DNA of 64,000 bases, from positions 1-64,000 of the IMG/VR virus record IMGVR_UViG_3300015360_000036. The stretch is one strand, 5' to 3'. Below the pieces are notes generated by a model. That model worked only from the letters and a program-made list of their open reading frames with translations, had not been told where the DNA came from and searched no databases. Below, in pieces: positions 1,582 to 61,457 of the stretch (within the stretch, counting starts at the first letter, position 1; every line of letters begins with the position of its first letter). A program made the translations under genes and the position numbers. This DNA comes from a virus.

Positions 1582-1934
1582 TGACAAATAACATGTTTCT
1601 AGATAAAATGAAAGAGATTTTGGTCACCCAGCGTCAGGCTTTAGTAAATAAGGCTCATGAGGTGGTTGATATAGACGATGATGGTGATGAGACTGACAGT
1701 ATTCAAGCGAACATTTTGATGGAAGTTAGTAAAAGGCTCTTAACAAGGGATAACGCTAAACTCTCTCAAATTGATGATGCACTAAAACGTATGACAGATC
1801 GCTGTTATGGTTTATGTGAAGACTGTGGGGACTCAATCCCAGAGAAGAGATTAGTCATTAACCCATACTTTTTGACCTGTATCTCCTGTGCTGAAGAGCG
1901 TGAGATTGAAGAAAAACATAAGAAGAGGTCATAA
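1581..1934 (+). CDS. dksA: DksA/TraR-family C4 zinc-finger transcription factor
   Basis: coiled coil with acidic tip DETD; YGLCEDCGDSIPEKRL...TCISC. Confidence 0.9.
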   Translation: MTNNMFLDKMKEILVTQRQALVNKAHEVVDIDDDGDETDSIQANILMEVSKRLLTRDNAKLSQIDDALKRMTDRCYGLCEDCGDSIPEKRLVINPYFLTCISCAEEREIEEKHKKRS

Positions 1935-1936
1935 AA

Positions 1937-2533
1937 TTGAACACTATTGTTACTGAAACAACAGACATTGGTGAAATTCCGGTAGATATATACCAAAAAT
2001 TAGCTGGCGATAGAATATTATTTATTAATGATTATATAGATGATCGGTTAGCAACAGATATAGTTGCTACTCTTATGCTAAAAGACAGTGAGGATGAAGA
2101 TAAAAAGATTACTCTATTCATTAACTCACCAGGCGGAAGTATTAGAGACGTATTCATGATCTATGATATGATGTGCTTAGTTAGGGCTCCAATTGAAACT
2201 GTATGCTTAGGATCTGCTATGGATGAGGTAGCAATCCTACTTGCTGCTGGTACCCCAGGTATGAGATTAGCTACAAAGAATTGTGTTATTTCAGTTGGAC
2301 AGTTAGTGCATGATTCAATGAGTTACTCAGACTTAACAGATGCTAAATCAATTTTAGATTTATCTGTAACTGATAATAAAAGAATGATGGAGGTTATTGC
2401 TAAAAGCACTGGTAAATCACTGAAGCAAGTTCTTGCTGATTTTCCTCGAACCGTATTTATGAATTGTCATCAGGCAGTTAAGTATGGAATTATTGATAAA
2501 GTAGTTTCGGTCAAGAAGGATTCATCAAAATGA
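1937..2533 (+). CDS. ClpP-family protein with degenerate catalytic triad (ClpR-like)
   Basis: DIYQKL..DRILF, LFINSPGG and YGIIDKV are ClpP motifs; the Ser, His and Asp positions read Asp, Gly and Thr. Confidence 0.85.
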   Translation: MNTIVTETTDIGEIPVDIYQKLAGDRILFINDYIDDRLATDIVATLMLKDSEDEDKKITLFINSPGGSIRDVFMIYDMMCLVRAPIETVCLGSAMDEVAILLAAGTPGMRLATKNCVISVGQLVHDSMSYSDLTDAKSILDLSVTDNKRMMEVIAKSTGKSLKQVLADFPRTVFMNCHQAVKYGIIDKVVSVKKDSSK

Positions 2534-3114
2534 ATAAAAATCATGATGATCATGATGGAAAAATGCCTGCCATTAGTAAGTACATGGAGAGCTATGTAAA
2601 ATTGGCGAAAGATCGTGTCATATTTCTGTCTGAGAATTTTTCCAAAGATACTGCATCCGAAATGTCGGCATTATTATTTTACTATGACAGCCAGAATTCG
2701 GAAGATGATATTACTATCTACATCCATTCAAATGGTGGTGATGCATCAGCACTAGGTAATATCTATGATGTTATCCAAATGATTAACTCACCAGTAAAAA
2801 CAATATGTATCGGTAAAGCGTATTCTGCTGGAGCTGTATTACTAGCGGCTGGTTCAAAAGGTAAAAGATATATCTTTAAGAATGCCAGAGTAATGATTCA
2901 TGGTATTCAATGTGTTTTCCCTATTATTGGTCATGATATTGCAAATTCAAAGAACTATTATAAGTTTTTAGATGAAAACAATGATAATATCATGAAAATT
3001 TTAGCTGACCATACAGGTCATCCTTTATCTAAGCTAAAAGAAGATTGTAAACGAGATGTATGGCTTGATGCAAAACAGGCGTTAGATTACGGTATTGTAG
3101 ATCACATTATGTAA
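2530..3114 (+). CDS. clpP: ATP-dependent Clp protease proteolytic subunit
   Basis: GKAYSAGAVLLAAG (Ser), RVMIH (His), RDVWL (Asp), YGIVD. Confidence 0.93.
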   Translation: MNKNHDDHDGKMPAISKYMESYVKLAKDRVIFLSENFSKDTASEMSALLFYYDSQNSEDDITIYIHSNGGDASALGNIYDVIQMINSPVKTICIGKAYSAGAVLLAAGSKGKRYIFKNARVMIHGIQCVFPIIGHDIANSKNYYKFLDENNDNIMKILADHTGHPLSKLKEDCKRDVWLDAKQALDYGIVDHIM

Positions 3115-3122
3115 ATTACTTT

Positions 3123-3148
3123 CCCTGGTTTAAGTAATTGACCCAGGG
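3123..3148. promoter_or_regulatory. intergenic hairpin
   Basis: CCCTGG (3123-3128) and CCAGGG (3143-3148) inverted repeat after clpP; no clear U tract. Confidence 0.35.
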
Positions 3149-3182
3149 TAAGCCAAAGATAGCAATATTACTTCATTTCTAT

Positions 3183-4799
3183 ATGAATAAAGAGGCACGT
3201 AAACAATCCAGTGATCCCATTCAAGAAAAGCTTAGGGCTCAAAAGGAATACTGGAATAAAAAGAAAGTCACTCCATTTATCGATAATTTGATTCATTTTA
3301 AGAAATTGATGAATGGTTCACCTTCAAAGTTTAATGGTGCCAAGTCTCAAATCGGTGAGCCTGTACCAGTAGACCCAGCCACTATAATTGCTATTCTATC
3401 TAGTGATTTTAATGAAATTGCTGCAATGGCAGCGTCTATAACAGATGCTCAACTACAATATTCTAAAAGTAGAAGAAGGAAAAAACAAGTTCAAACAGTT
3501 GATCCTAATCAACTAAACTTACCTTTTGGTAAAAATTCTTCGTTACAATTAGAAGCATCAAATAAGGTAACTAGATTTTTTTCACATTTGAATGTTCCAT
3601 ATTTTGGATATTCTTCGGAAGCTAGAGAAAGAAAATTTAGACTTACTCTTCTTACAGCCGCATCAAATATAGAAAAAGAAGTAAAGAAGCTAGAGCATGA
3701 AATACTTAGAGATAGCCCTGCTAGCATTCTAACATCTAGATTATTAATTAATAAGATTAATGATCAAATCTATATTGCCATGAGTCAATTAACCTTTTTC
3801 TCAGAAAGCAAAGCAGAAAAAGAAGAAAAAGCTAAGTTTACTCAATCAGGTCCAGTTAAAGGTGTATATCCATTCACACCACTAGCCGTTTTTCCTGGTG
3901 TGGTCTCACCACCAAAAGGAGAGCCATTGGCTGATAATGGACCCTCAGCAAATCCAGCATCCAACCGTCCTGCAAGTGCTGGTAATATAGCCGCTGATGT
4001 TCTTGATGAAGAAGAAGAGTTTGGTGGAATAAGTGTAAATAATATGCCTATTGGCATCGCAGATAATGATGTACACTCTCAACCAGGCTCTGCTCGGTCT
4101 GTTACACCATTAACTGATCCACTAGAAATTCAAAATGATGTTGAAAAGTATCATGGAAATATACCAAATCTCTTCAATGATCCTCTTTTGAAGGAAGTAC
4201 AATTAGCTATAACTATGGTTGTTGGAACTCAAAACCCAATAACGAAAGCTCAAAAAGTAGTTGAATTAGTTAGAGATTATGCTAATCTAATTACTTATGT
4301 TAATAGTCAACTTGGTACTCATGGTGATTCTTTACGAGATATTTTATTATCACTTAACAGAGCCTCAGAAAGATATTCCGAAAGATTAGAGACTTTAGCA
4401 GATAATATGCTTTCTAAGTGGATCAATAAAACTAAACACAGATTAAGTCCAACAAATAGGACATCAGCTCTTAGATTAGAAATATTTGAAAGTGCATCAA
4501 GAGTTAAAGATTTGATTGATGATATGATGAATTCATTAGAAAAAAGTCTAAATGTTTCAGAACTAGAAGTTTTTTTCAAAACACTAGTTGAAGAAATTAC
4601 TTTAATGGATAAAGTAATGAAACCATTAGAGTTGTTCACTAAGGGCGTAAACCTGGATAATGAATTTATGAAGTCCTTGGAACAAGGTAACGGTCTACAA
4701 AATGGAATCCAATTATCTGATAAGGATAAAGAGAACTTCCAGAAGATGGTTAGAAATAAGGAACTAAGACAAATGGTCAATATGAAGGGTAAAAAATAA
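3183..4799 (+). CDS. hypothetical protein, possibly virion-associated
   Basis: long helical ORF, ATG at 3183 preferred over TTG at 3138; Pro/Ala-rich linker; MNKEAR, LQLEAS and LETLAD motifs. Confidence 0.55.
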   Translation: MNKEARKQSSDPIQEKLRAQKEYWNKKKVTPFIDNLIHFKKLMNGSPSKFNGAKSQIGEPVPVDPATIIAILSSDFNEIAAMAASITDAQLQYSKSRRRKKQVQTVDPNQLNLPFGKNSSLQLEASNKVTRFFSHLNVPYFGYSSEARERKFRLTLLTAASNIEKEVKKLEHEILRDSPASILTSRLLINKINDQIYIAMSQLTFFSESKAEKEEKAKFTQSGPVKGVYPFTPLAVFPGVVSPPKGEPLADNGPSANPASNRPASAGNIAADVLDEEEEFGGISVNNMPIGIADNDVHSQPGSARSVTPLTDPLEIQNDVEKYHGNIPNLFNDPLLKEVQLAITMVVGTQNPITKAQKVVELVRDYANLITYVNSQLGTHGDSLRDILLSLNRASERYSERLETLADNMLSKWINKTKHRLSPTNRTSALRLEIFESASRVKDLIDDMMNSLEKSLNVSELEVFFKTLVEEITLMDKVMKPLELFTKGVNLDNEFMKSLEQGNGLQNGIQLSDKDKENFQKMVRNKELRQMVNMKGKK

Positions 4800-5191
4800 T
4801 GGAAGAAGGATTCGTACATCTAGATACCAAAGTTTTTCCTACCCTTTTGGCTATTTCTGAAGAGGAACAATCTAAAGGATTAATGTATGCGGCTTGGCCA
4901 CCGCCAGTAATGTCATTTGTTTACTCTTCACCACAGGTAAATAAATTCTGGATGAAAAATACGCCAAGTCCACTAGACATTATATTCTGTTGTAATGGAC
5001 AGATCACTCAAATACATAAGGGTGATCCTTACACCACAACAAAAATAGGTGATGATAGTTTAAGTGATCTTATTATTGAGCTTCCATTCGGAACTGTATC
5101 AAAATCTGGAATTCAATTATTAAGTAGGGTCGGGCTCGTCAGCCCATCCGGCGAGCAATTGATGAAAATCATAGCCACCAAGGCGCGCTGA
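4799..5191 (+). CDS. DUF192-family protein
   Basis: QSKGLMY...MSFVY...FWMKNTPSPLDIIF...IIELPFG. Confidence 0.85.
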   Translation: MEEGFVHLDTKVFPTLLAISEEEQSKGLMYAAWPPPVMSFVYSSPQVNKFWMKNTPSPLDIIFCCNGQITQIHKGDPYTTTKIGDDSLSDLIIELPFGTVSKSGIQLLSRVGLVSPSGEQLMKIIATKAR

Positions 5192-5241: not shown

Positions 5242-6243
5242 GTGAAGACAATGGAACCTATTAAAAATCTGAACGACATTCTCCATAACTTCAACATTAA
5301 AGCAACATGTGTCAATTATCAGAGGGTTGACAACTACTCTTTCTTTGACTTGCAGTTGAATGCAAGAACGAAGGTTAAAGAGATTGAGAAATATGCAGAT
5401 GAGATTTCTCTTGCAATGAAGACCGTTTCGAAGCCCAACGTCAAGATCATTCACGATCTTGGCGTTGTTCGTTTGGGGTTCGTTGCTCCTCGCGAAACTC
5501 CTCTTAACCTCTTCGAGTATAATACAAATACAGATGTTCCTAAGGGTGATCTTGTTTGTTTGCTTGGTCAGACGATTGACGGCAAAAAAATGTGGATGGA
5601 TATTGCTGCTAACCCGCATATGATTATTGCTGGTACCACTGGTTCTGGTAAAAGTACTTTGATGCATAATATCATCGCAAATGTACTGAAGAATAGTAAT
5701 GCAATCATCTATTTGATTGATCCCAAGAATATTGAATTCACTGAGTATGATAAAAAAGTTAAGAATCGTATCAGTGTATCATATTCGTATGATGAAGCTA
5801 ATGTTATTCTTGATGATATGATTACTACGATGGAATCCAGGTATGAACTGATGAAGGCTGGTGTTTCTGCTTCTATCTTTCCAATCAGGGTTCTTATGAT
5901 TGATGAATTTTCTGATTTGATTATGCAGGACAAGGGTAATAAGTTTTATGATAAGCTTTGTCGTCTTGCACAAAAATGTCGCGCTGCAAGGATTCATATC
6001 ATTCTTGCAACACAGCGACCTTCAGTTAATGTTATCAGTGGTACGATTAAAGCTAACTTCCCTGCACGTATTTCCTGTAGGGTTGCAAGCAATGTTGACT
6101 CCAGGGTTATTCTTGATACGAATGGTGCTGAAGATCTTTTTGGTAAGGGTGATGCTTTTCTAAAGGATAATTCTCGTTCAATGGAGCGTTTTCAGGTTGC
6201 TTACACTGATGCGCAGGAAGTTTGTAAGCATTTCGGTAAATAA
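5242..6243 (+). CDS. ftsK: FtsK/SpoIIIE DNA translocase motor (no membrane anchor or gamma domain)
   Basis: PHMIIAGTTGSGKS, LIDPK, IDEFSDL, LATQRPS, GAEDLFGKGD. Confidence 0.92.
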   Translation: MKTMEPIKNLNDILHNFNIKATCVNYQRVDNYSFFDLQLNARTKVKEIEKYADEISLAMKTVSKPNVKIIHDLGVVRLGFVAPRETPLNLFEYNTNTDVPKGDLVCLLGQTIDGKKMWMDIAANPHMIIAGTTGSGKSTLMHNIIANVLKNSNAIIYLIDPKNIEFTEYDKKVKNRISVSYSYDEANVILDDMITTMESRYELMKAGVSASIFPIRVLMIDEFSDLIMQDKGNKFYDKLCRLAQKCRAARIHIILATQRPSVNVISGTIKANFPARISCRVASNVDSRVILDTNGAEDLFGKGDAFLKDNSRSMERFQVAYTDAQEVCKHFGK

Positions 6244-10247: not shown

Positions 10248-10339
10248 TCATTATCAATATGTTGGTTCTAGCCGTCGATATAGATAGTTCGCAAGTAACA
10301 AACGTATTAAAATAATAGAAAGAACGAGCATTTTTGCTA

Positions 10340-11665
10340 ATGAATAAAAATAATAAAGTGGCTGATACAGATTATCTTGCGCCAAAGGAGCTAGAAGGAC
10401 AAGAGACTTTAAATAAAAGTGTTCTTATCAACATGACTCCACGTAGAACTGTGCATGATGTTAATAGTACTAGACCAACCCAAAACTTCATCGATGTAAT
10501 GAAGTGGGCTGAATCTAATTTTACTAAAGTGTTAGCAGATAGAACTAATGTCAATAGATTTATTCACAATCGAATTGTAATAGATGGTCAATTTTTGCAA
10601 TTTGCTAAAGAGCAAGGAATAAAAATTGAATGCTTGTACAAGGATTCAGTTATTTCTTGGAAGACTGAACATTCATTTGAAAAATTCTTTGTACAAGGGG
10701 TATTTCTTATTGAAGCTAAGGGCGTTGAATTTCTACATGCCGCTATTTTCCATAAGGGAAATCAATTCGAAGATGAAATTAGCTTCTTCGTTCTTTGTTC
10801 AGATTCAAACTTTGAAGCCTACATCAAACTTAGGAATTCGTTTGATGAGTGGGTAACTAAGAGAGATAGAGGTAATCTTCACATTAGAGTAATTGGTGGT
10901 GAAGATATTCCTTATACGAAGGATAGTTCATGGGAGGAGTTGTTCTTACCAGAAGATATTAAGACAGATGTAAAAGATTTAGTTGAAGGATTTTTAGCAT
11001 CAAAAGATTTTTATCTTGAAAACAGGATTCCTTGGAAACGTGGGGTGCTGTTATATGGTGAGCCAGGAAATGGTAAAACATCCATTATTCGTTCAATAAT
11101 GGCAAATTACAATTTCAAACCAGTAACACCAGTTGCTGGTGCAAGTGATGATGCCATTAGAGAAACCTTTGCTTACGCAGAAGAGCAAAATCCTTCATTA
11201 TTATATTTTGAAGATCTCGATTCAATGATTGAAAATGGATTAAATGTTTCATCTTTCTTGAACTTAATGGATGGTATCTCTGCTAAGAATGGTCTTTTGG
11301 TTATTGCGACAGCAAATAATTTCAAAAAATTACCATATAGCATAACAGATAGACCATCACGTTTCGATAGAAAATTTGAGATTCCATTACCAAATCAGGA
11401 AATGGCGTATATATATCTTAAGAGATGGTTCGGCGCGCTCATTACCGCAAAGAAATGCAAAGAGCTTGCTAAACTATCGGAGAAGTACGGATTCTCTTAT
11501 GCTTACTTAAAGGAAATTTATATTTCTTCAATGTTTGAAGCTCTTGCTCATAAGAAGAAGGTTCCAACGGAGAAGGATGTAGATAATGCGCTTAATAGGT
11601 TGATGAAAGATAAAAACATTCTAAGGAATGCGAATAAGATTAACACGGATAGATATTTCAAGTAA
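10340..11665 (+). CDS. AAA+ ATPase (stand-alone, classic AAA clade)
   Basis: RGVLLYGEPGNGKT, YFEDLD, IATAN, DRPSRFDRK second region of homology. Confidence 0.9.
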   Translation: MNKNNKVADTDYLAPKELEGQETLNKSVLINMTPRRTVHDVNSTRPTQNFIDVMKWAESNFTKVLADRTNVNRFIHNRIVIDGQFLQFAKEQGIKIECLYKDSVISWKTEHSFEKFFVQGVFLIEAKGVEFLHAAIFHKGNQFEDEISFFVLCSDSNFEAYIKLRNSFDEWVTKRDRGNLHIRVIGGEDIPYTKDSSWEELFLPEDIKTDVKDLVEGFLASKDFYLENRIPWKRGVLLYGEPGNGKTSIIRSIMANYNFKPVTPVAGASDDAIRETFAYAEEQNPSLLYFEDLDSMIENGLNVSSFLNLMDGISAKNGLLVIATANNFKKLPYSITDRPSRFDRKFEIPLPNQEMAYIYLKRWFGALITAKKCKELAKLSEKYGFSYAYLKEIYISSMFEALAHKKKVPTEKDVDNALNRLMKDKNILRNANKINTDRYFK

Positions 11666-11689: not shown

Positions 11690-12058
11690 ATGAAAGACAA
11701 TTATTCTAAAGGTAGAAAACCATTTAAAAAGGCACTGAAAGGGGGTGATTCGCAAGCCGACGATATTATTATCGATGAAGTTTCAAAAAATGAACCAGTA
11801 CTCGGAGAATATTTAGAAGTAAAAGTTTTCAATAACTTTGAAAAGGCAATACGAGCTTTCAGGGCAGTAGTTCAAAAAGAGCGTATTTTATCCCTTTATA
11901 AGGAAAAGCAGTCATTTGAAAAACCTTCTGATAAGCGCAGAAGGAAGCGTAATGAGATGAAACGAAAGCGTTTAGAGTTAGAGAGTGATAATGGTTCAGA
12001 ACCTAAGGTCAAAAAGACTTTCAAAAAGCACTCCTTTAAGGATACTTCTCCAGAATAA
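11690..12058 (+). CDS. rpsU: ribosomal protein bS21 homolog with terminal extensions
   Basis: EVKVFNNFEKAIRAFRAVVQKERILSLYKEKQSFEKPSDKRRRK matches the bS21 consensus. Confidence 0.88.
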   Translation: MKDNYSKGRKPFKKALKGGDSQADDIIIDEVSKNEPVLGEYLEVKVFNNFEKAIRAFRAVVQKERILSLYKEKQSFEKPSDKRRRKRNEMKRKRLELESDNGSEPKVKKTFKKHSFKDTSPE

Positions 12059-17261: not shown

Positions 17262-17459
17262 ATGCTATGTACTAGTTGCAGTAAACTTGCTCAATTACAC
17301 ACTAATAAGGTATGTTCACGCTGTAAAGGCAGTGTTTTTATTAGTATTTCTGTTATTTGTGAAAAATGTTCAAGCAAAACAAAACAATGCTCTGCATGTC
17401 TTAAAAATATATCTTCACCATCTAGTAAGTCAGGTGGATGTGGACAATGCGGTAAATGA
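17262..17459 (+). CDS. Cys-rich small protein (five CxxC pairs, CRIPT-like spacing)
   Basis: MLCTSC...CSRCK...CEKC...CSAC...CGQC. Confidence 0.65.
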   Translation: MLCTSCSKLAQLHTNKVCSRCKGSVFISISVICEKCSSKTKQCSACLKNISSPSSKSGGCGQCGK

Positions 17460-17472
17460 TATACAGGACCAT

Positions 17473-18000
17473 ATGATTATTACAAACAACGAAAGTGCTC
17501 TAAGAGTTACATGTGAAGAAGTACTACCTGAAGAGGTAGGTAGTCTTATCGAAATTTTAGAATTAGAATTAGATAATAGCAATAGGCTCGGCAGGGGCGG
17601 AATTGGATTGGCTGGTCCACAAATCGGAATTGCTAAGAAAATAGCTATTGTAAGGTTAAACCAAAACATGAATATCAATCTAATTAATTGTAAGATTGAG
17701 AAAGGCTATGACCCTACGATTTTCAGGGAGGAAGGTTGTTTATCTTTTCCTGGTAGAGTAGAAGATACTATAAGATTTCAGGAGGTATATATTACTGGTA
17801 ACCTAACTTATCCTCATAGTTTTGTTGCAACTGGTTTATTAGCTGTTGTATGTCAGCATGAAATTGATCATCTAAATAGTATTATATTTACTGATAGAAT
17901 AAACCCAAAGCCGATAATGATTAAAAAATCAAAAGTTGGTCCTAATGACCCTTGTTTGTGCGGTTCAAACAAAAAATATAAGAAATGTTGTGCTAAATGA
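17473..18000 (+). CDS. def: peptide deformylase with C-terminal SEC-C motif
   Basis: GIGLAGPQIG, EGCLS, QHEIDHL; tail KVGPNDPCLCGSNKKYKKCC; AGGA RBS before ATG 17473. Confidence 0.93.
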   Translation: MIITNNESALRVTCEEVLPEEVGSLIEILELELDNSNRLGRGGIGLAGPQIGIAKKIAIVRLNQNMNINLINCKIEKGYDPTIFREEGCLSFPGRVEDTIRFQEVYITGNLTYPHSFVATGLLAVVCQHEIDHLNSIIFTDRINPKPIMIKKSKVGPNDPCLCGSNKKYKKCCAK

Positions 18001-26555: not shown

Positions 26556-26583
26556 TTGACAGAAAAAATATAGTTATTATAAT
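26556..26583 (+). promoter_or_regulatory. consensus sigma70 promoter for tig
   Basis: TTGACA (26556-26561), 16 nt, TATAAT (26578-26583). Confidence 0.8.
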
Positions 26584-26617
26584 GGTTAGTGCCAACATTG
26601 AGAAAATAGGAAGAAAA

Positions 26618-27868
26618 ATGCAAATCGAAGTTAAAGAAATTGAGCCATGCAAACTATCAGTTCATTATGAAGCAAATGCTGAGCAGATTCTAAATAAAAG
26701 AGCGGAGGTGTTCCAAGCCTTTAAGAAAGCACCTGTACCGGGATTCAGACCAGGTAAAGTAGCTCCAGAAGCTATTAAAATGCATTACAAGAATCAGATT
26801 GAGGAAGCTCTTAAAAGGGGTTTAGCAGAAGATGCTTACCATAATACGCTTTTCGAGAAAAAGCTAAGAGCACACGGTGCTCCAAGGTTTACCACATTAT
26901 CACTAATTGGTGGTAAGTTTAGTTGTGATTTTGATCTACACACTAAGCCAGATTTTGAGCTAGCTCCTTATCATAAGCTAAATGTACCAAAACCACACAG
27001 TCCTTTATCACAAAGTGATATAGCCGAAAAAATGCTTCAAGAAGTTAGAGTTCGTCTTGGAGAGCACACCCCTTATTCAGATACTGATTTCGTTCAAATG
27101 AATGATAATGTCATTGTTGATTATGAGGGTTCAGTAGATGGTGTTAAAGTTGAGGCATTAACCGCTACTGGTGAGATGCTTAATGTTGGAACCAGCCAAT
27201 TACCAGCATTTGATGAAAATTTATTGGGTATGACTGTAGGCGAAACTAGGGAATTTTCCCTGGTAGCTCCAGCTAATTCTTTACCATCATTAGCTGGAAA
27301 GCTTGTTACATTTAAAGTAACGCTTACTATTGGTTCAAAGAACACTCCAGCAGCTTTGGATGATAGTTTAGCTGTAAAACTTGGTAAAAAAGATTACAAT
27401 GAATTACGTGAATTTGTGACAGCCAATGCTGGCGCTCAAGTAATCAATACAGGAAAATCTGCATTAAATGGTTCTATCACCGCAAAACTAGTAGAAGATA
27501 ATAAAATTGATGTGCCAAACTGGCTTGCTCTTTCTGAAGCTCAGTATTTAGCTCATCATTCAAAAATGGATTGGAATACTATTTCTGATGCAGATAAGGA
27601 TAAGCTTTTGATAATGGCAGAGAAAAATGTCAAATTATCATTGGTGTTAGATAAGATTAGAGAGACTGAGCCTGATGCCCAGCTAAGTGATAATGAAGTA
27701 CTTAATATAATTAAGCACAATATGTCTAAAACTAAATTACAATCATCATCATTTGATGATGCGATTAAAGAGATGACAAGAACAGGTTATCTTCAAGTTT
27801 TATTCTCAAGAATAAAAGATGAATATACTCTAGACTACATCGTAAAATCAGCAATCATAACGGAATAA
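26618..27868 (+). CDS. tig: trigger factor
   Basis: ribosome-binding signature VPGFRPGKVAP, FKBP-like domain (VIVDYEGSVDG...GMTVGETREF), C-terminal domain; AGGAAG RBS. Confidence 0.92.
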   Translation: MQIEVKEIEPCKLSVHYEANAEQILNKRAEVFQAFKKAPVPGFRPGKVAPEAIKMHYKNQIEEALKRGLAEDAYHNTLFEKKLRAHGAPRFTTLSLIGGKFSCDFDLHTKPDFELAPYHKLNVPKPHSPLSQSDIAEKMLQEVRVRLGEHTPYSDTDFVQMNDNVIVDYEGSVDGVKVEALTATGEMLNVGTSQLPAFDENLLGMTVGETREFSLVAPANSLPSLAGKLVTFKVTLTIGSKNTPAALDDSLAVKLGKKDYNELREFVTANAGAQVINTGKSALNGSITAKLVEDNKIDVPNWLALSEAQYLAHHSKMDWNTISDADKDKLLIMAEKNVKLSLVLDKIRETEPDAQLSDNEVLNIIKHNMSKTKLQSSSFDDAIKEMTRTGYLQVLFSRIKDEYTLDYIVKSAIITE

Positions 27869-28479: not shown

Positions 28480-29145
28480 ATGACTAATAATGGTGTTGGC
28501 ACAATAGCTAATGTAAGAAAAAAGTTTCATTCTACACATGAATTGATAACAACTTCATATCATGAAGCTGGTCATGCTGTGTACGGTTTACTCAAATGCA
28601 TGAAAATCGAAGAGGTTTCTGTATTTGAAAATAAGAAAACCAAAAGAATTGAGGGTTTTACTTACTATAAATCACCAACACCAGAACAGTTTATTGATCC
28701 AGATTTGACTTATTATTGGTTAATAGCTGAAATAAGTTGCAAATATGCAGGATTAGGTGCCGAAAAGTATCATTTTAAGAGTATTTCAGGATCTGATAAA
28801 TTCCCGATGTTCTTGAGAGATGGATCTTCTAGTGATACTTTGTCTGCCGCGGCGATGATAAGACAATTCAATTTATCACCACCAGGCAGGAAAACTTATA
28901 ATTATAAGAAATTGCTTATAAAAAATACTTGCCGTAACTTGCAAGAACATTGGGATGCTGTTACACTAGTATCCCACGCATTATTTAAAAAGAAAAGATT
29001 AGATTATGAGGAGATTAAAAATCTCCTTATTAAAAAATCTAGTCATAAACAATTTTGGAAAGAAAGATTCCAAATAATTTCAACTATTTATGGATTGCCT
29101 TCAACGATTGATGAAGCTGAACTAAAGCTGATTTTATTTATTTGA
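28480..29145 (+). CDS. stand-alone M41 (FtsH protease domain)-like metallopeptidase
   Basis: TSYHEAGHAV, AGLGAE, GSSSD, and an L..HW.AV..V..AL...L..EEI tail. Confidence 0.75.
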   Translation: MTNNGVGTIANVRKKFHSTHELITTSYHEAGHAVYGLLKCMKIEEVSVFENKKTKRIEGFTYYKSPTPEQFIDPDLTYYWLIAEISCKYAGLGAEKYHFKSISGSDKFPMFLRDGSSSDTLSAAAMIRQFNLSPPGRKTYNYKKLLIKNTCRNLQEHWDAVTLVSHALFKKKRLDYEEIKNLLIKKSSHKQFWKERFQIISTIYGLPSTIDEAELKLILFI

Positions 29146-38946: not shown

Positions 38947-39534
38947 ATGATTAAAAAAATTTTAGGATTTGATGCAAGTTCCACTACTATTGGCTGGGCT
39001 TGTCTTGAAATCAATGATATTGATAATTCAATAGTACATAAAAATTCTGGTTTTATTAAGCCTCCTAAAAAGGGTAATATAATCGAACGAATATACAAAA
39101 CAAGAGCTGAAGTTCAGAAGGTAATTGATTTGTATAAGCCTGATCATATAGGAATAGAAGAAATTATACAATTTATGCAGGGAAAAAGTACAGCAAAAAC
39201 AATTATTATGTTAACAACGTTTAATCGCATGGTTGGATTAGTGTCATATGATTCTTTGGGTGTAACACCGGAGTTTTTCAATGTTATGTCGATTAGACAT
39301 GGATTAAAATTAAATAAAGATTTGCCAAAAAAAGAAGATATGCCAGATCTTGTTTCACAGCATTTAGGCATTACATTCCCTTATCAGTATAAAAAGACTG
39401 GTAAACCAATTGAAGAAAATTATGATAGAGCAGACGGAATTGCAGTTGCTCTATATTACGCATTAGTATTGACTGGTAAAGTAAAACGAAAAATAAAGAA
39501 ACCAAAAGATAAGAAGAGTAAGGTGACGAAGTGA
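38947..39534 (+). CDS. RuvC-like Holliday junction resolvase
   Basis: ILGFDASSTTIGWA, IGIEE, KKEDM, DRADGIAVA. Confidence 0.85.
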   Translation: MIKKILGFDASSTTIGWACLEINDIDNSIVHKNSGFIKPPKKGNIIERIYKTRAEVQKVIDLYKPDHIGIEEIIQFMQGKSTAKTIIMLTTFNRMVGLVSYDSLGVTPEFFNVMSIRHGLKLNKDLPKKEDMPDLVSQHLGITFPYQYKKTGKPIEENYDRADGIAVALYYALVLTGKVKRKIKKPKDKKSKVTK

Positions 39535-40448
39535 ATTTACAAGAAGCGTATAAAACTCTGGATTTGACACCGGGCACGTCGAAGGATGATGCCAAGAAGA
39601 AATATCGGGAGCTTACTAAAAAGTACCATCCTGATATAAATAAGGAGCCCGGAGCCGAGGATAAGTTTAAAAAAATAAATGAAGCTTATTCATGTGTTCA
39701 AGCTGGAAAAGGTAATGAGCCACAAAGACAATCAAGCAATCCATTTGGCAGGCAAACGTATCATAACCAAGAAAATATTCAACTTAATGTAACAATATCA
39801 TTTGCTGAATCTATATTAGGCTGTGAAAGACATTTTAAATTCAATAGGAAAGCAAAATGTAACTTATGTAATGGTAAAGGTGAAATTAATTTGCATAATG
39901 GGTGTGATAAATGTGAAGGTAAAGGCTTAATTGTAACCAGACAAGGTAATGCTATCTATAGTAGGACTTGTGATAAATGCTATGGTAAAACTGACACTCA
40001 ATCTTGTAATGCATGTAACGCTGATGGTAGTGTTGATACCGATACTTCTATAAAGGTAACAATTCCAGGTGGAGTACAAAGCGGCAATATACTTCAATTA
40101 GCGGGTATGGGACATTTTGTTGGTTCTTTTATGCATATGGATCAACGAACTGATGCTCATGTTCATATTTTAGTTACACCAGAACCAGGGCTTTCTCTAT
40201 CTGGAGCTACTGTTGTATGTGATTTGCAGTTAAGTTTGATAGATGCCATTAAAGGTTGTAAGAGAACAGTAAAAACTGTTTTAGGTGATAAGGAAGTTGA
40301 AATTCCGGCACAATCAAGGAATAAAGATATAGTGGTAATACCAAACATGGGTGTAAACCGTGTTGGAGATCAAAATGTAGTCTTGGATGTTAGATATTCT
40401 GAGCAGATTCTAAATATGATAGATAAACTAATGGATGGAGTAGAGTAA
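39531..40448 (+). CDS. dnaJ: DnaJ chaperone
   Basis: J domain with YHPD, four CxxCxGxG-type repeats, C-terminal domains. Confidence 0.93.
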   Translation: MNLQEAYKTLDLTPGTSKDDAKKKYRELTKKYHPDINKEPGAEDKFKKINEAYSCVQAGKGNEPQRQSSNPFGRQTYHNQENIQLNVTISFAESILGCERHFKFNRKAKCNLCNGKGEINLHNGCDKCEGKGLIVTRQGNAIYSRTCDKCYGKTDTQSCNACNADGSVDTDTSIKVTIPGGVQSGNILQLAGMGHFVGSFMHMDQRTDAHVHILVTPEPGLSLSGATVVCDLQLSLIDAIKGCKRTVKTVLGDKEVEIPAQSRNKDIVVIPNMGVNRVGDQNVVLDVRYSEQILNMIDKLMDGVE

Positions 40449-60039: not shown

Positions 60040-60113
60040 TATACTTAGAATCAATTAGTATTTATGTATAATCTTGTATTGTTTACGAATTGAATATAAG
60101 TGAAGGGTTTACT

Positions 60114-61457
60114 ATGGAAAAATACGCTCAAAGAAATATTGGAGATAGAGCATCTGGCTTTATAAATAAAATTAAAGAGAAAACTAATATTGGAGGCATT
60201 GCTTCTGAAAATCTTTTTAATCCAAAATTCACAAAAATTATGAATACTCTTAGGGATGATGTAGATGATCCTATTAGAGCTATTTTATTTGGTGAAAAAA
60301 TTAATGAAGCTTCTCCTCCAGAAGGATTAGTTGGCGCCAAAACTTATCTAAGGAATGCCAAAGAGAATCTTGCAAAAAAGGAGTATATGAATACTCTTGG
60401 AAATATTGGCAAGTTTCATAAAAGCATGGAATTAATTACCAAGCGCTTATTATCTTTTAAAGGTAATGTTGATGATATTCATGAAGAATTCATTCAAAAA
60501 GATGTTGTTGATGATACTAAAGACGAGATAAGAAGATTGCAAGATCGTTATCTAAAAAGAAAACAACAAAAAGCAGCATCAGATAGAAATTCACTAATGA
60601 CTAAACGAGCTGGTATTATGGAGTTCTTAATAGGTAAAGAAAGAGGTATGGCTACTTGGGAGAAGTTATATCCAAAACAATTCAAAAGACTTAGAGAAGA
60701 TTTAGGTGTTCTATTAAAAGAATCTAATTCCTTATTTAATTTGACATTATCTAATCTTAAAGATATGGCTGGATTTAGAGGTGCTAGAAAAGTTGGTGAT
60801 TACATTACTTCTGGCGAAGTAATTGTCAAAGCTTATAATACATATGATACAAAGTTTGATACTTTGTTTGATACTCATAATGCATTGTTAGGTAAGATTA
60901 GCAGAAGTGTCCCTAAACCTGATGGTATTCCACCAACAGTAGATATGGTATCTGTGCCAGGTGATGCTCATCGATATGGTATTCCACCAACAGTAGATAT
61001 GGTATATGTGCCAGGTGATGCTCATCAATTTAGTGGACCAAACACTTCTCCAATGGCTTCCAGTCCAGTGACAATTAATCAACCACCTGCAAGTGGCGCA
61101 CATAATATTGGAGATAGACCAACAAGATTAAGCCCAGTAGTAGGTCCAGATGGTAAACCAAAAAGTGCGCCTCCACCAGTTTCAGTTGTAACGTTACAAC
61201 CAACGATTCCAGATCTAGGACCATTACCAAGTTTTCGTGATCCAACTTCAGTTCCTGATAATGCTAAGGTTCGTTTGGTTCCAAATTCAGTTCCAGTTTT
61301 GGGTCATAGGAAATTTATTGAATCATTGGAATCAATGAGTGGTGAACATCCATTGATTTTAGCTAAATTTATTTCTAAGTATGCTACATCGATACAAGGA
61401 AATGATCCAGATTCAGCAATTAAGCTATTTAAAATGGCAAAAAGCATTAGGGGTTAA
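60114..61457 (+). CDS. hypothetical head-module protein with Pro-rich region
   Basis: ATG 60114 (MEKYAQ) preferred. Confidence 0.6.
   Translation: MEKYAQRNIGDRASGFINKIKEKTNIGGIASENLFNPKFTKIMNTLRDDVDDPIRAILFGEKINEASPPEGLVGAKTYLRNAKENLAKKEYMNTLGNIGKFHKSMELITKRLLSFKGNVDDIHEEFIQKDVVDDTKDEIRRLQDRYLKRKQQKAASDRNSLMTKRAGIMEFLIGKERGMATWEKLYPKQFKRLREDLGVLLKESNSLFNLTLSNLKDMAGFRGARKVGDYITSGEVIVKAYNTYDTKFDTLFDTHNALLGKISRSVPKPDGIPPTVDMVSVPGDAHRYGIPPTVDMVYVPGDAHQFSGPNTSPMASSPVTINQPPASGAHNIGDRPTRLSPVVGPDGKPKSAPPPVSVVTLQPTIPDLGPLPSFRDPTSVPDNAKVRLVPNSVPVLGHRKFIESLESMSGEHPLILAKFISKYATSIQGNDPDSAIKLFKMAKSIRG
60922..61026 (+). repeat. 54-bp in-frame tandem duplication
   Basis: GIPPTVDMV(S/Y)VPGDAH encoded twice by near-identical DNA. 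Confidence 0.9.

Follow-up and report, generated by a model that had tools for sequence, protein, structure and literature searches.

The locus studied here consists of two overlapping genes on the plus strand, both of which encode proteins of the ClpP family. The upstream gene, c1 (1937..2533), starts with a TTG codon and encodes a ClpP-fold subunit of 198 amino acids that lacks the catalytic triad and thus resembles ClpR; the downstream gene, c2 (2530..3114), starts with an ATG codon and encodes a ClpP subunit of 194 amino acids that possesses Ser99, His124, and Asp176 and begins with a variable His/Asp-rich N-terminus. The window, i.e., the entire stretch of DNA that we analyzed, corresponds to the initial 64 kb of an IMG/VR virus record of 73.8 kb, which CheckV rates as 17% complete; the full genome would accordingly measure roughly 430 kb. 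The window has a GC content of about 34% and carries nearly all of its long open reading frames (ORFs) on the plus strand. Genes for a phage terminase, a portal protein, a DnaE-type polymerase, and an SbcC-like nuclease are accompanied by those for a type IA topoisomerase, an AAA ATPase, the ribosomal protein S21, a deformylase, trigger factor, DnaJ, and a weak M41-like peptidase. The TerL protein is at most 25% identical to the TerL of any deposited phage, which places the window in a clade without a cultured or deposited relative in that collection. A comparison with the deposited phages yielded no DNA match, and their best protein matches to c1 were below 40% identity.

The stop codon of c1 and the start codon of c2 share the four bases of an ATGA overlap (2530..2533, plus strand), which was read directly from the sequence and would couple the translation of the two genes; they occupy different reading frames. 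Each start codon is preceded by a Shine-Dalgarno sequence on the plus strand: AAGAGG (1923..1928) serves the TTG start of c1 and is located inside the 3' end of the dksA-like gene, and GAAGGA (2515..2520) serves c2 and is located inside the 3' end of c1. Since an in-frame stop codon at 1919-1921 rules out an upstream start for c1, the TTG at 1937 is its first possible start. In the 27 genomes compared below, c1 starts with TTG in 25 and with ATG and GTG in one each, and ATG is the start codon of c2 in 24. The two genes overlap or are at most 12 nt apart in 26 of these 27 genomes, and a purine-rich Shine-Dalgarno sequence, mostly of the AGAGG/AAGAG type, recurs 5' of c1 in the relatives. The weak c1 start codon is conserved despite saturated synonymous sites, which suggests that the amount of c1 is under selection and that its dosage relative to c2 is tuned.

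Both proteins match Pfam CLP_protease (PF00574; cut-off 20.2 bits) over nearly the whole profile, c1 with an E value of 1.4e-43 (149 bits, profile positions 6-180 of 182) and c2 with an E value of 6.1e-50 (170 bits, positions 7-179 of 182). Each of them also matches solved ClpP proteins (PDB chains) with an E value of about 1e-34, c2 over nearly its whole length. Together with the ATGA overlap, these matches bear out the description of the locus as two overlapping full-length ClpP genes in an earlier note on this DNA. We read the triad positions from alignments to E. coli ClpP from strain MG1655 and to the PDB chains. At the positions of Ser97, His122, and Asp171, c1 possesses Asp96 (nt 2222-2224), Gly121 (nt 2297-2299), and Thr172 (nt 2450-2452), whereas c2 retains Ser99 (nt 2824-2826), His124 (nt 2899-2901), and Asp176 (nt 3055-3057). 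The alignment to E. coli ClpP, which the earlier note had proposed as a check, hence gave the residues D/G/T and S/H/D that this note had read from the motifs SAMDEV, ISVGQ, and PRTVF in c1 and KAYSAG, VMIH, and KRDVW in c2, all of which are present.

An AlphaFold2 model of c1 derived with 28 relatives (pLDDT 80) predicts a complete ClpP fold that includes the long handle helix, and Foldseek aligned it with many solved ClpPs at TM scores between 0.84 and 0.90. The best of these matches (TM about 0.9) were chains of the Mycobacterium tuberculosis ClpP2 protein, the subunit of ClpP1P2 that docks the unfoldase. Sequence identity of c1 to the best-superposing solved bacterial ClpPs is 33-36%.

Members of the ClpP family (MEROPS S14 fold) are characterized by a Ser-His-Asp triad. 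Since this triad is missing from c1 and none of its relatives possesses a Ser plus a His, c1 is predicted to be a non-peptidase ClpP homologue. Among the 27 genomes, the three former triad positions of c1 are occupied by D/N/K/A/Y/G, S/T/N/G, and R/K/T/Q/L/V, respectively. The earlier note had also considered that an intact triad might have shifted to other positions. We found no such displaced triad, because no Ser or His of c1 is invariant across the relatives; even His125, which comes close to invariance, is not constant in the wider set of sequences. The former Ser position is followed by an essentially invariant Glu (E97, 26 of 27), which is usually preceded by an Asp. The triad of c2 reads S-H-D or S-H-E in all 27 genomes. 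Glu takes the place of Asp as the third residue in one sub-clade of eight genomes (L016, L017, L019, L021, L023, L024, L026, and L027).

When the features of c1 and c2 were compared on the identical 27 genomes, a pronounced asymmetry became apparent. The N-terminal loops of ClpP gate the pore of the barrel and contact the AAA+ unfoldase. The start of c1 coincides with that of mature E. coli ClpP, and its N-terminus follows the canonical ClpP type (M/L-N-T-I/L-V-x-E-x-T-E-x-G-E-x-P-x-D-V-Y-Q-K-L), with Glu8 in 27 and Asp18 in 26 of the 27 genomes; both residues are fixed in c1 only. Of the two subunits, c1 alone has kept the canonical pore loops, and the mean pairwise identity of the N-terminal region is 0.59 in c1 versus 0.30 in c2. 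The first 15-25 residues of c2 (window 2530-2590, and the same region in L003-L034) are poorly conserved and rich in His, Asp, and Glu, with His often alternating with Asp or Glu (HDDHD, HDHEH, and HEHEH types); here, the usual pore-gating loop may have given way to a tail that binds metal or is disordered. Gln123 is kept in c1 and is replaced by Gly in the c2 proteins of all 27 genomes. Likewise, the Glu169/Arg170 pair, the ring-ring "sensor" of ClpP, is kept in c1 and is variable and non-acidic in c2. The opposite trend is found in the handle region, where identity is higher in c2 (0.58) than in c1 (0.46), and the positions of the pocket for the unfoldase loops are mostly hydrophobic in both proteins. 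The absence of canonical loops and sensor residues from c2 suggests that c2 depends on a partner, and this distribution of sequence features suggests that the dead subunit provides the gating and docking face while the live one provides the chemistry.

To determine the prevalence of the pair we relied on several types of searches. A word-indexed search with c1 recovered 691 proteins at E values of 1e-10 or below; the best 120 of these 691 proteins are 64-83% identical to c1, derive from contigs of up to 467 kb, and lack the triad without exception (120 of 120). An alignment-based scan of IMG/VR with c1 identified 33 loci on contigs of up to 481 kb, which correspond to 27 non-redundant pairs, the window's own included, and the dead copy is directly followed by the live copy in all 27. 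The reciprocal scan with a c2 alignment found 45 loci, of which 43 contain the dead-then-live pair; the two others are distant, unrelated ClpP-like genes (27-28% identity). Judged from both scan directions, the pairing of c1 and c2 is obligate. All related huge-phage contigs that were retrieved from IMG/VR (approximately 40, from genomes of 350-480 kb) carry the same pair within the same dksA-to-topoisomerase block, and each of five near-complete genomes (433-481 kb, one of them with terminal repeats) contains exactly two genes of the ClpP family. Unlike the alignment-based scan, a scan of IMG/VR with the single c1 protein found no loci. Alignments of the more divergent members of the dead clade were too variable for locus scans; a scan with one such member (P0140) found none, and another (P0155) led to a single locus, L057, which displays the same module in the order dksA-like gene, dead copy, live copy, an ORF of roughly 500 amino acids, DUF192, and FtsK-like gene.

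The earlier note had envisaged that the first copy might be decaying neutrally, which could be judged from dN/dS across related phages. This is not the case. The reading frames of c1 are intact in all copies (about 194 amino acids), 52 alignment columns are invariant across 28 sequences, and the mean dN of c1 (0.333) does not exceed that of c2 (0.360). In the closest pair of genomes, dN/dS is about 0.05 for c1 and 0.03 for c2, with dS being saturated in every comparison. Since c1 evolves no faster than c2, it is not decaying; by these measures, constraint on the dead copy is no weaker than on the live one, and purifying selection maintains it. The pairwise distance matrices of c1 and c2 are correlated (r = 0.83) and their sub-clades match, which indicates that the two genes are inherited together. 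Hence, the relatives and the genomic context lend good support to the phage origin of the locus, to the resemblance of the first copy to ClpR, and to its maintenance, all of which had been proposed from the window alone, and the presence of a maintained ClpR-like subunit next to an active ClpP across the whole huge-phage clade is largely supported.

A HMMER search of 1.84 billion cluster representatives ranked about 35 triad-less clusters above any active ClpP, and the nearest triad-intact proteins of this library are only about 35-41% identical to c1. In a maximum-likelihood tree, all c1 proteins and 37 triad-less representatives form one clade (49 rows, SH-aLRT 99), of which every member lacks the Ser-His pair. 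The c2 sequences form a separate clade (15 rows, SH-aLRT 99), and other, scattered triad-less proteins are placed among cellular ClpPs. A tree in which c1 and c2 were constrained to be sisters had a higher likelihood than the one from an unconstrained quick search, and this arrangement is not rejected by the AU test (p-AU 0.76). These data are consistent with an origin of c1 and c2 by duplication within the phage lineage, although long branches could attract each other. With respect to the tree that had been suggested in the earlier note, c1 was thus placed in a clade of its own composed exclusively of dead proteins and a sister relationship to c2 is compatible with the data. A pattern scan of 185,579 bacterial and archaeal species genomes (one genome per species) detected no c1-type gene; the best matches were 37% identical and all of them possess S-H-D or S-H-N. 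Dead copies were found solely on phage contigs or in unnamed metagenome clusters.

The genes that surround the pair are arranged in the same order in nearly all relatives: an IHF-like gene, a 126-aa ORF, the dksA-like gene, c1, c2, a 553-aa ORF, and DUF192, followed by genes for an FtsK-like ATPase, a 447-aa ORF, topoisomerase, AAA ATPase, and S21. In the window, the members of this block with recognizable domains next to the pair are the IHF/HU-like gene (866-1201), the DksA/TraR-type zinc-finger gene (1581-1934), DUF192 (4799-5191), and a short FtsK/SpoIIIE-type ATPase (5242-6243). The DksA/TraR-type gene, located on the plus strand, is the direct 5' neighbor of c1 (Pfam zf-dskA_traR, E value 1e-10). 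In 26 of 26 related loci it occurs at an unchanged offset, and L057 contains it as well. The direct 3' neighbor of c2 (3138..4799, plus strand) encodes a fast-evolving 553-aa protein that matches no Pfam, PHROG, or NCBIfam family. Of 26 loci, 25 carry this ORF (21-52% identity). The middle part of the protein is rich in Pro/Ser and of low complexity, and its Atlas model (pLDDT 0.46) gave no usable match. The 553-aa protein might act as an adaptor for the protease or be one of its substrates. Elsewhere in the window, a 455-aa ORF (60090-61457) located directly 3' of the portal gene is helical and conserved at its ends, with a Pro-rich middle part that varies. It has only four homologues among 5.8 billion proteins and no protease signature, and its sequence looks scaffold-like.

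The relatives were also inspected for candidate unfoldase partners. A phage-encoded ClpX or ClpA as the general partner was rejected: an Hsp100-type ATPase is present in only one of five complete relatives (739 amino acids; L041 1210-3429, minus strand, in the 472,749-bp genome G005; AAA_2 E value 1.6e-63). A phage-encoded unfoldase is thus an occasional add-on in this clade. The remaining AAA_2 matches are weak, and the one in L043 is a 368-aa ATPase unlike ClpX. No ClpS was found in the complete relatives examined, and no ClpX or ClpA in most of them. Eight kb downstream of the pair, the window encodes a 443-aa AAA ATPase of the classic clade (10334-11665), which is 46-72% identical across the phage clade. 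Among PDB entries it matches B. subtilis YjoB best, followed by VAT and p97, and it also matches models of PAN and FtsH. In most relatives, the C-terminus of this ATPase is a conserved DKYFK tail that bears a loose resemblance to the motifs by which proteasomal ATPases dock. That the ATPase is the partner of the c1/c2 core is speculative; its partner may instead be the weak M41-like peptidase, whose match is below the Pfam cut-off. This peptidase (28480-29145) is one of a set of proteostasis genes in the window that also comprises S21 (11690-12058), a peptide deformylase with a SEC-C tail (17287-18000), a full trigger factor (26582-27868), and DnaJ (39531-40448). In bacteria, the trigger factor gene tig adjoins clpP-clpX.

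We consider it reasonably probable that c1 is a pseudo-protease that is co-produced and co-assembled with the active c2 into a heteromeric ClpP-type barrel. Such a barrel would constitute a phage-built Clp core analogous to the ClpR/ClpP or ClpP1P2 cores. Its active sites would come from c2, and c1 would contribute structure and probably the axial face, which we assign to c1 as the sole subunit with canonical pore loops at its N-terminus. The unfoldase would most likely be the ClpX, ClpA, or ClpC protein of the host, because an unfoldase gene is absent from most complete relatives. During infection, the core might then break down proteins of the host or the phage, beside the S21, deformylase, trigger factor, and DnaJ proteins of the phage. 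Co-assembly, ring arrangement, unfoldase partner, and substrates of c1 and c2 are what we infer here; the idea of a hetero-oligomer fits the comparative evidence, i.e., the obligate adjacency, the coupling, the matching trees, and the complementary conservation of the two subunits. As to the rings themselves, the cross-ring sensor E169/R170 is intact in c1 only, and contacts of c1 with c1 across the equator, or c1 homo-oligomers, fit this at least as well as a ring of c1 stacked on a ring of c2. A bolder version, which we advance tentatively and regard as rather doubtful in its entirety, envisions an asymmetric barrel in which the dead subunit is the sole face for docking and gating of the unfoldase and the gate-less live subunit cuts. 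In this scenario, the barrel would go back to a gene duplication within huge phages that was independent of ClpR, and would capture host ClpX, ClpA, or ClpC for substrates chosen by the phage, or would be partnered by the 443-aa AAA ATPase with its DKYFK tail, with the TTG start codon setting the subunit ratio.

The earlier note had also considered that the dead subunit might act on the ClpP of the host. In such a case, c1 would poison host ClpP rings, or barrels of dead subunits would soak up host ClpX or ClpA and in this way protect phage proteins, and c2 would function separately. The canonical N-terminal loops of c1, the retention of most residues of the hydrophobic pocket that bind the unfoldase, and the absence of an own unfoldase from most relatives are in line with such an activity, and with its E169/R170 sensor c1 could form rings alone. 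However, a decoy should track diverse hosts, yet c1 is always found directly in front of c2, is coupled to it, and has its tree and its rate in common with it. Moreover, 33-36% identity to solved bacterial ClpPs, and about 35-41% to triad-intact proteins, is low for insertion into a host ring, and the loss of loops and sensor from c2 suggests dependence on a partner. We therefore favor poisoning of host ClpP less than the hetero-oligomer of c1 and c2, and consider a host-directed c1 improbable. An entirely independent, non-proteolytic role of c1, for instance as a ring-shaped chaperone or a binding platform that merely has the operon in common with c2, seems to us more improbable still. While the conservation of E97 (26 of 27) suggests that a new feature has become fixed at the dead site, nothing points to a specific alternative function, and both the strict pairing and the complementary loss of features in c2 favor a joint function.

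ClpP-family head maturation proteases are common among phages, and c2 might accordingly be a prohead maturation protease, with c1 serving as an inactive scaffold or regulator in the procapsid. PHROG families annotated in this way match c2 (E value 4.8e-31) and c1 (8e-14), a search of four complete relatives revealed no protease of the S77, S78, or S49 families, and virions of phage G carry ClpP and ClpX (PMC12484599). Nevertheless, the cellular ClpP model NF001368 scores 161 bits for c1 and 165 bits for c2, whereas the head maturation model NF045542 scores only 34.7 bits for c1 and 64.5 bits for c2 against a cut-off of 120. Both proteins are full-length ClpPs without a C-terminal scaffold or targeting extension, the model of c1 includes the handle, and the pair is located about 52 kb away from the terminase and portal genes, within the conserved block of dksA, IHF-like, FtsK-like, and topoisomerase genes. 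By score and by position, c1 and c2 thus stand outside the ClpP-related head maturation proteases of phages (NF045542, PHROG 94), and we judge a role in virion assembly to be unlikely.

ClpP subunits without catalytic activity have so far been an oddity confined to cyanobacteria, plastids, and apicoplasts, and what they do is still debated. That an entire phage clade keeps both copies equally well points to a mixed protease barrel built by a virus, similar to the ClpR/ClpP cores. The pair would represent an independent, virus-encoded version of ClpR that is made of two small subunits and comes in hundreds of natural variants, and a clean split of features, with the pore loops on the dead and the active sites on the live subunit, would make it a simple test system for the contribution of a dead subunit. 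A protease core would also add to the proteostasis genes of huge phages (S21, deformylase, trigger factor, DnaJ), and it bears on the way in which these phages take over the protein turnover of their hosts.

Genes for Clp proteins as such are not new to phages. ClpP, ClpX, ClpA, and ClpS have been described in jumbo phages in one survey (PMC7824862, Iyer et al., 2021), phage G encodes ClpXP (PMC12484599), and CLP_protease is listed among the frequent Pfam domains of Jug phages (PMC12880540). Like c1 and c2, the jumbo-phage ClpPs are phage-encoded homologues of cellular ClpP that presumably act on proteins of the host or the phage, but the available portions of these two reports (PMC7824862, PMC12484599) describe them as active and do not mention an inactive partner. 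In the phages with a single ClpP in our data set (L036-L040), the triad reads S-H-D or S-H-N and the N-terminus is canonical. The literature that we searched, which leaves out many subscription journals, yielded no description of a phage with an inactive paralogue of ClpP; within this literature, the statement of the earlier note that no phage example had been described holds, with phage ClpP and ClpX already being known (PMC7824862, PMC12484599).

The cyanobacterial ClpP3/ClpR core, which is served by ClpC, and the ClpR proteins of plastids and apicoplasts likewise employ a dead ClpP paralogue under selection together with an active ClpP, and c1 is a ClpR-like protein in the sense of a conserved ClpP paralogue without catalytic residues. 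However, the ClpR systems belong to cells or organelles, whereas c1 is encoded by phages, forms a clade of its own, and is free of long insertions; the best likelihood places it as sister to the phage c2, in a tree without named ClpR sequences, which fits an independent duplication in phages. The ClpP1P2 proteases of Mycobacterium tuberculosis, Listeria monocytogenes, Pseudomonas aeruginosa, and Streptomyces offer a second parallel. To our knowledge, both subunits of the known ClpP1P2 pairs possess at least the Ser and the His. ClpP1P2 consists of two competent, co-encoded paralogues, both of them active; c1 and c2 are co-encoded as well, but c1 lacks all three triad residues in every genome. 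As in ClpP1P2, two paralogues are found in one operon, and the fact that one type of ClpP1P2 subunit docks the unfoldase would be matched by c1, which alone keeps the pore loops and whose best structural match is ClpP2.
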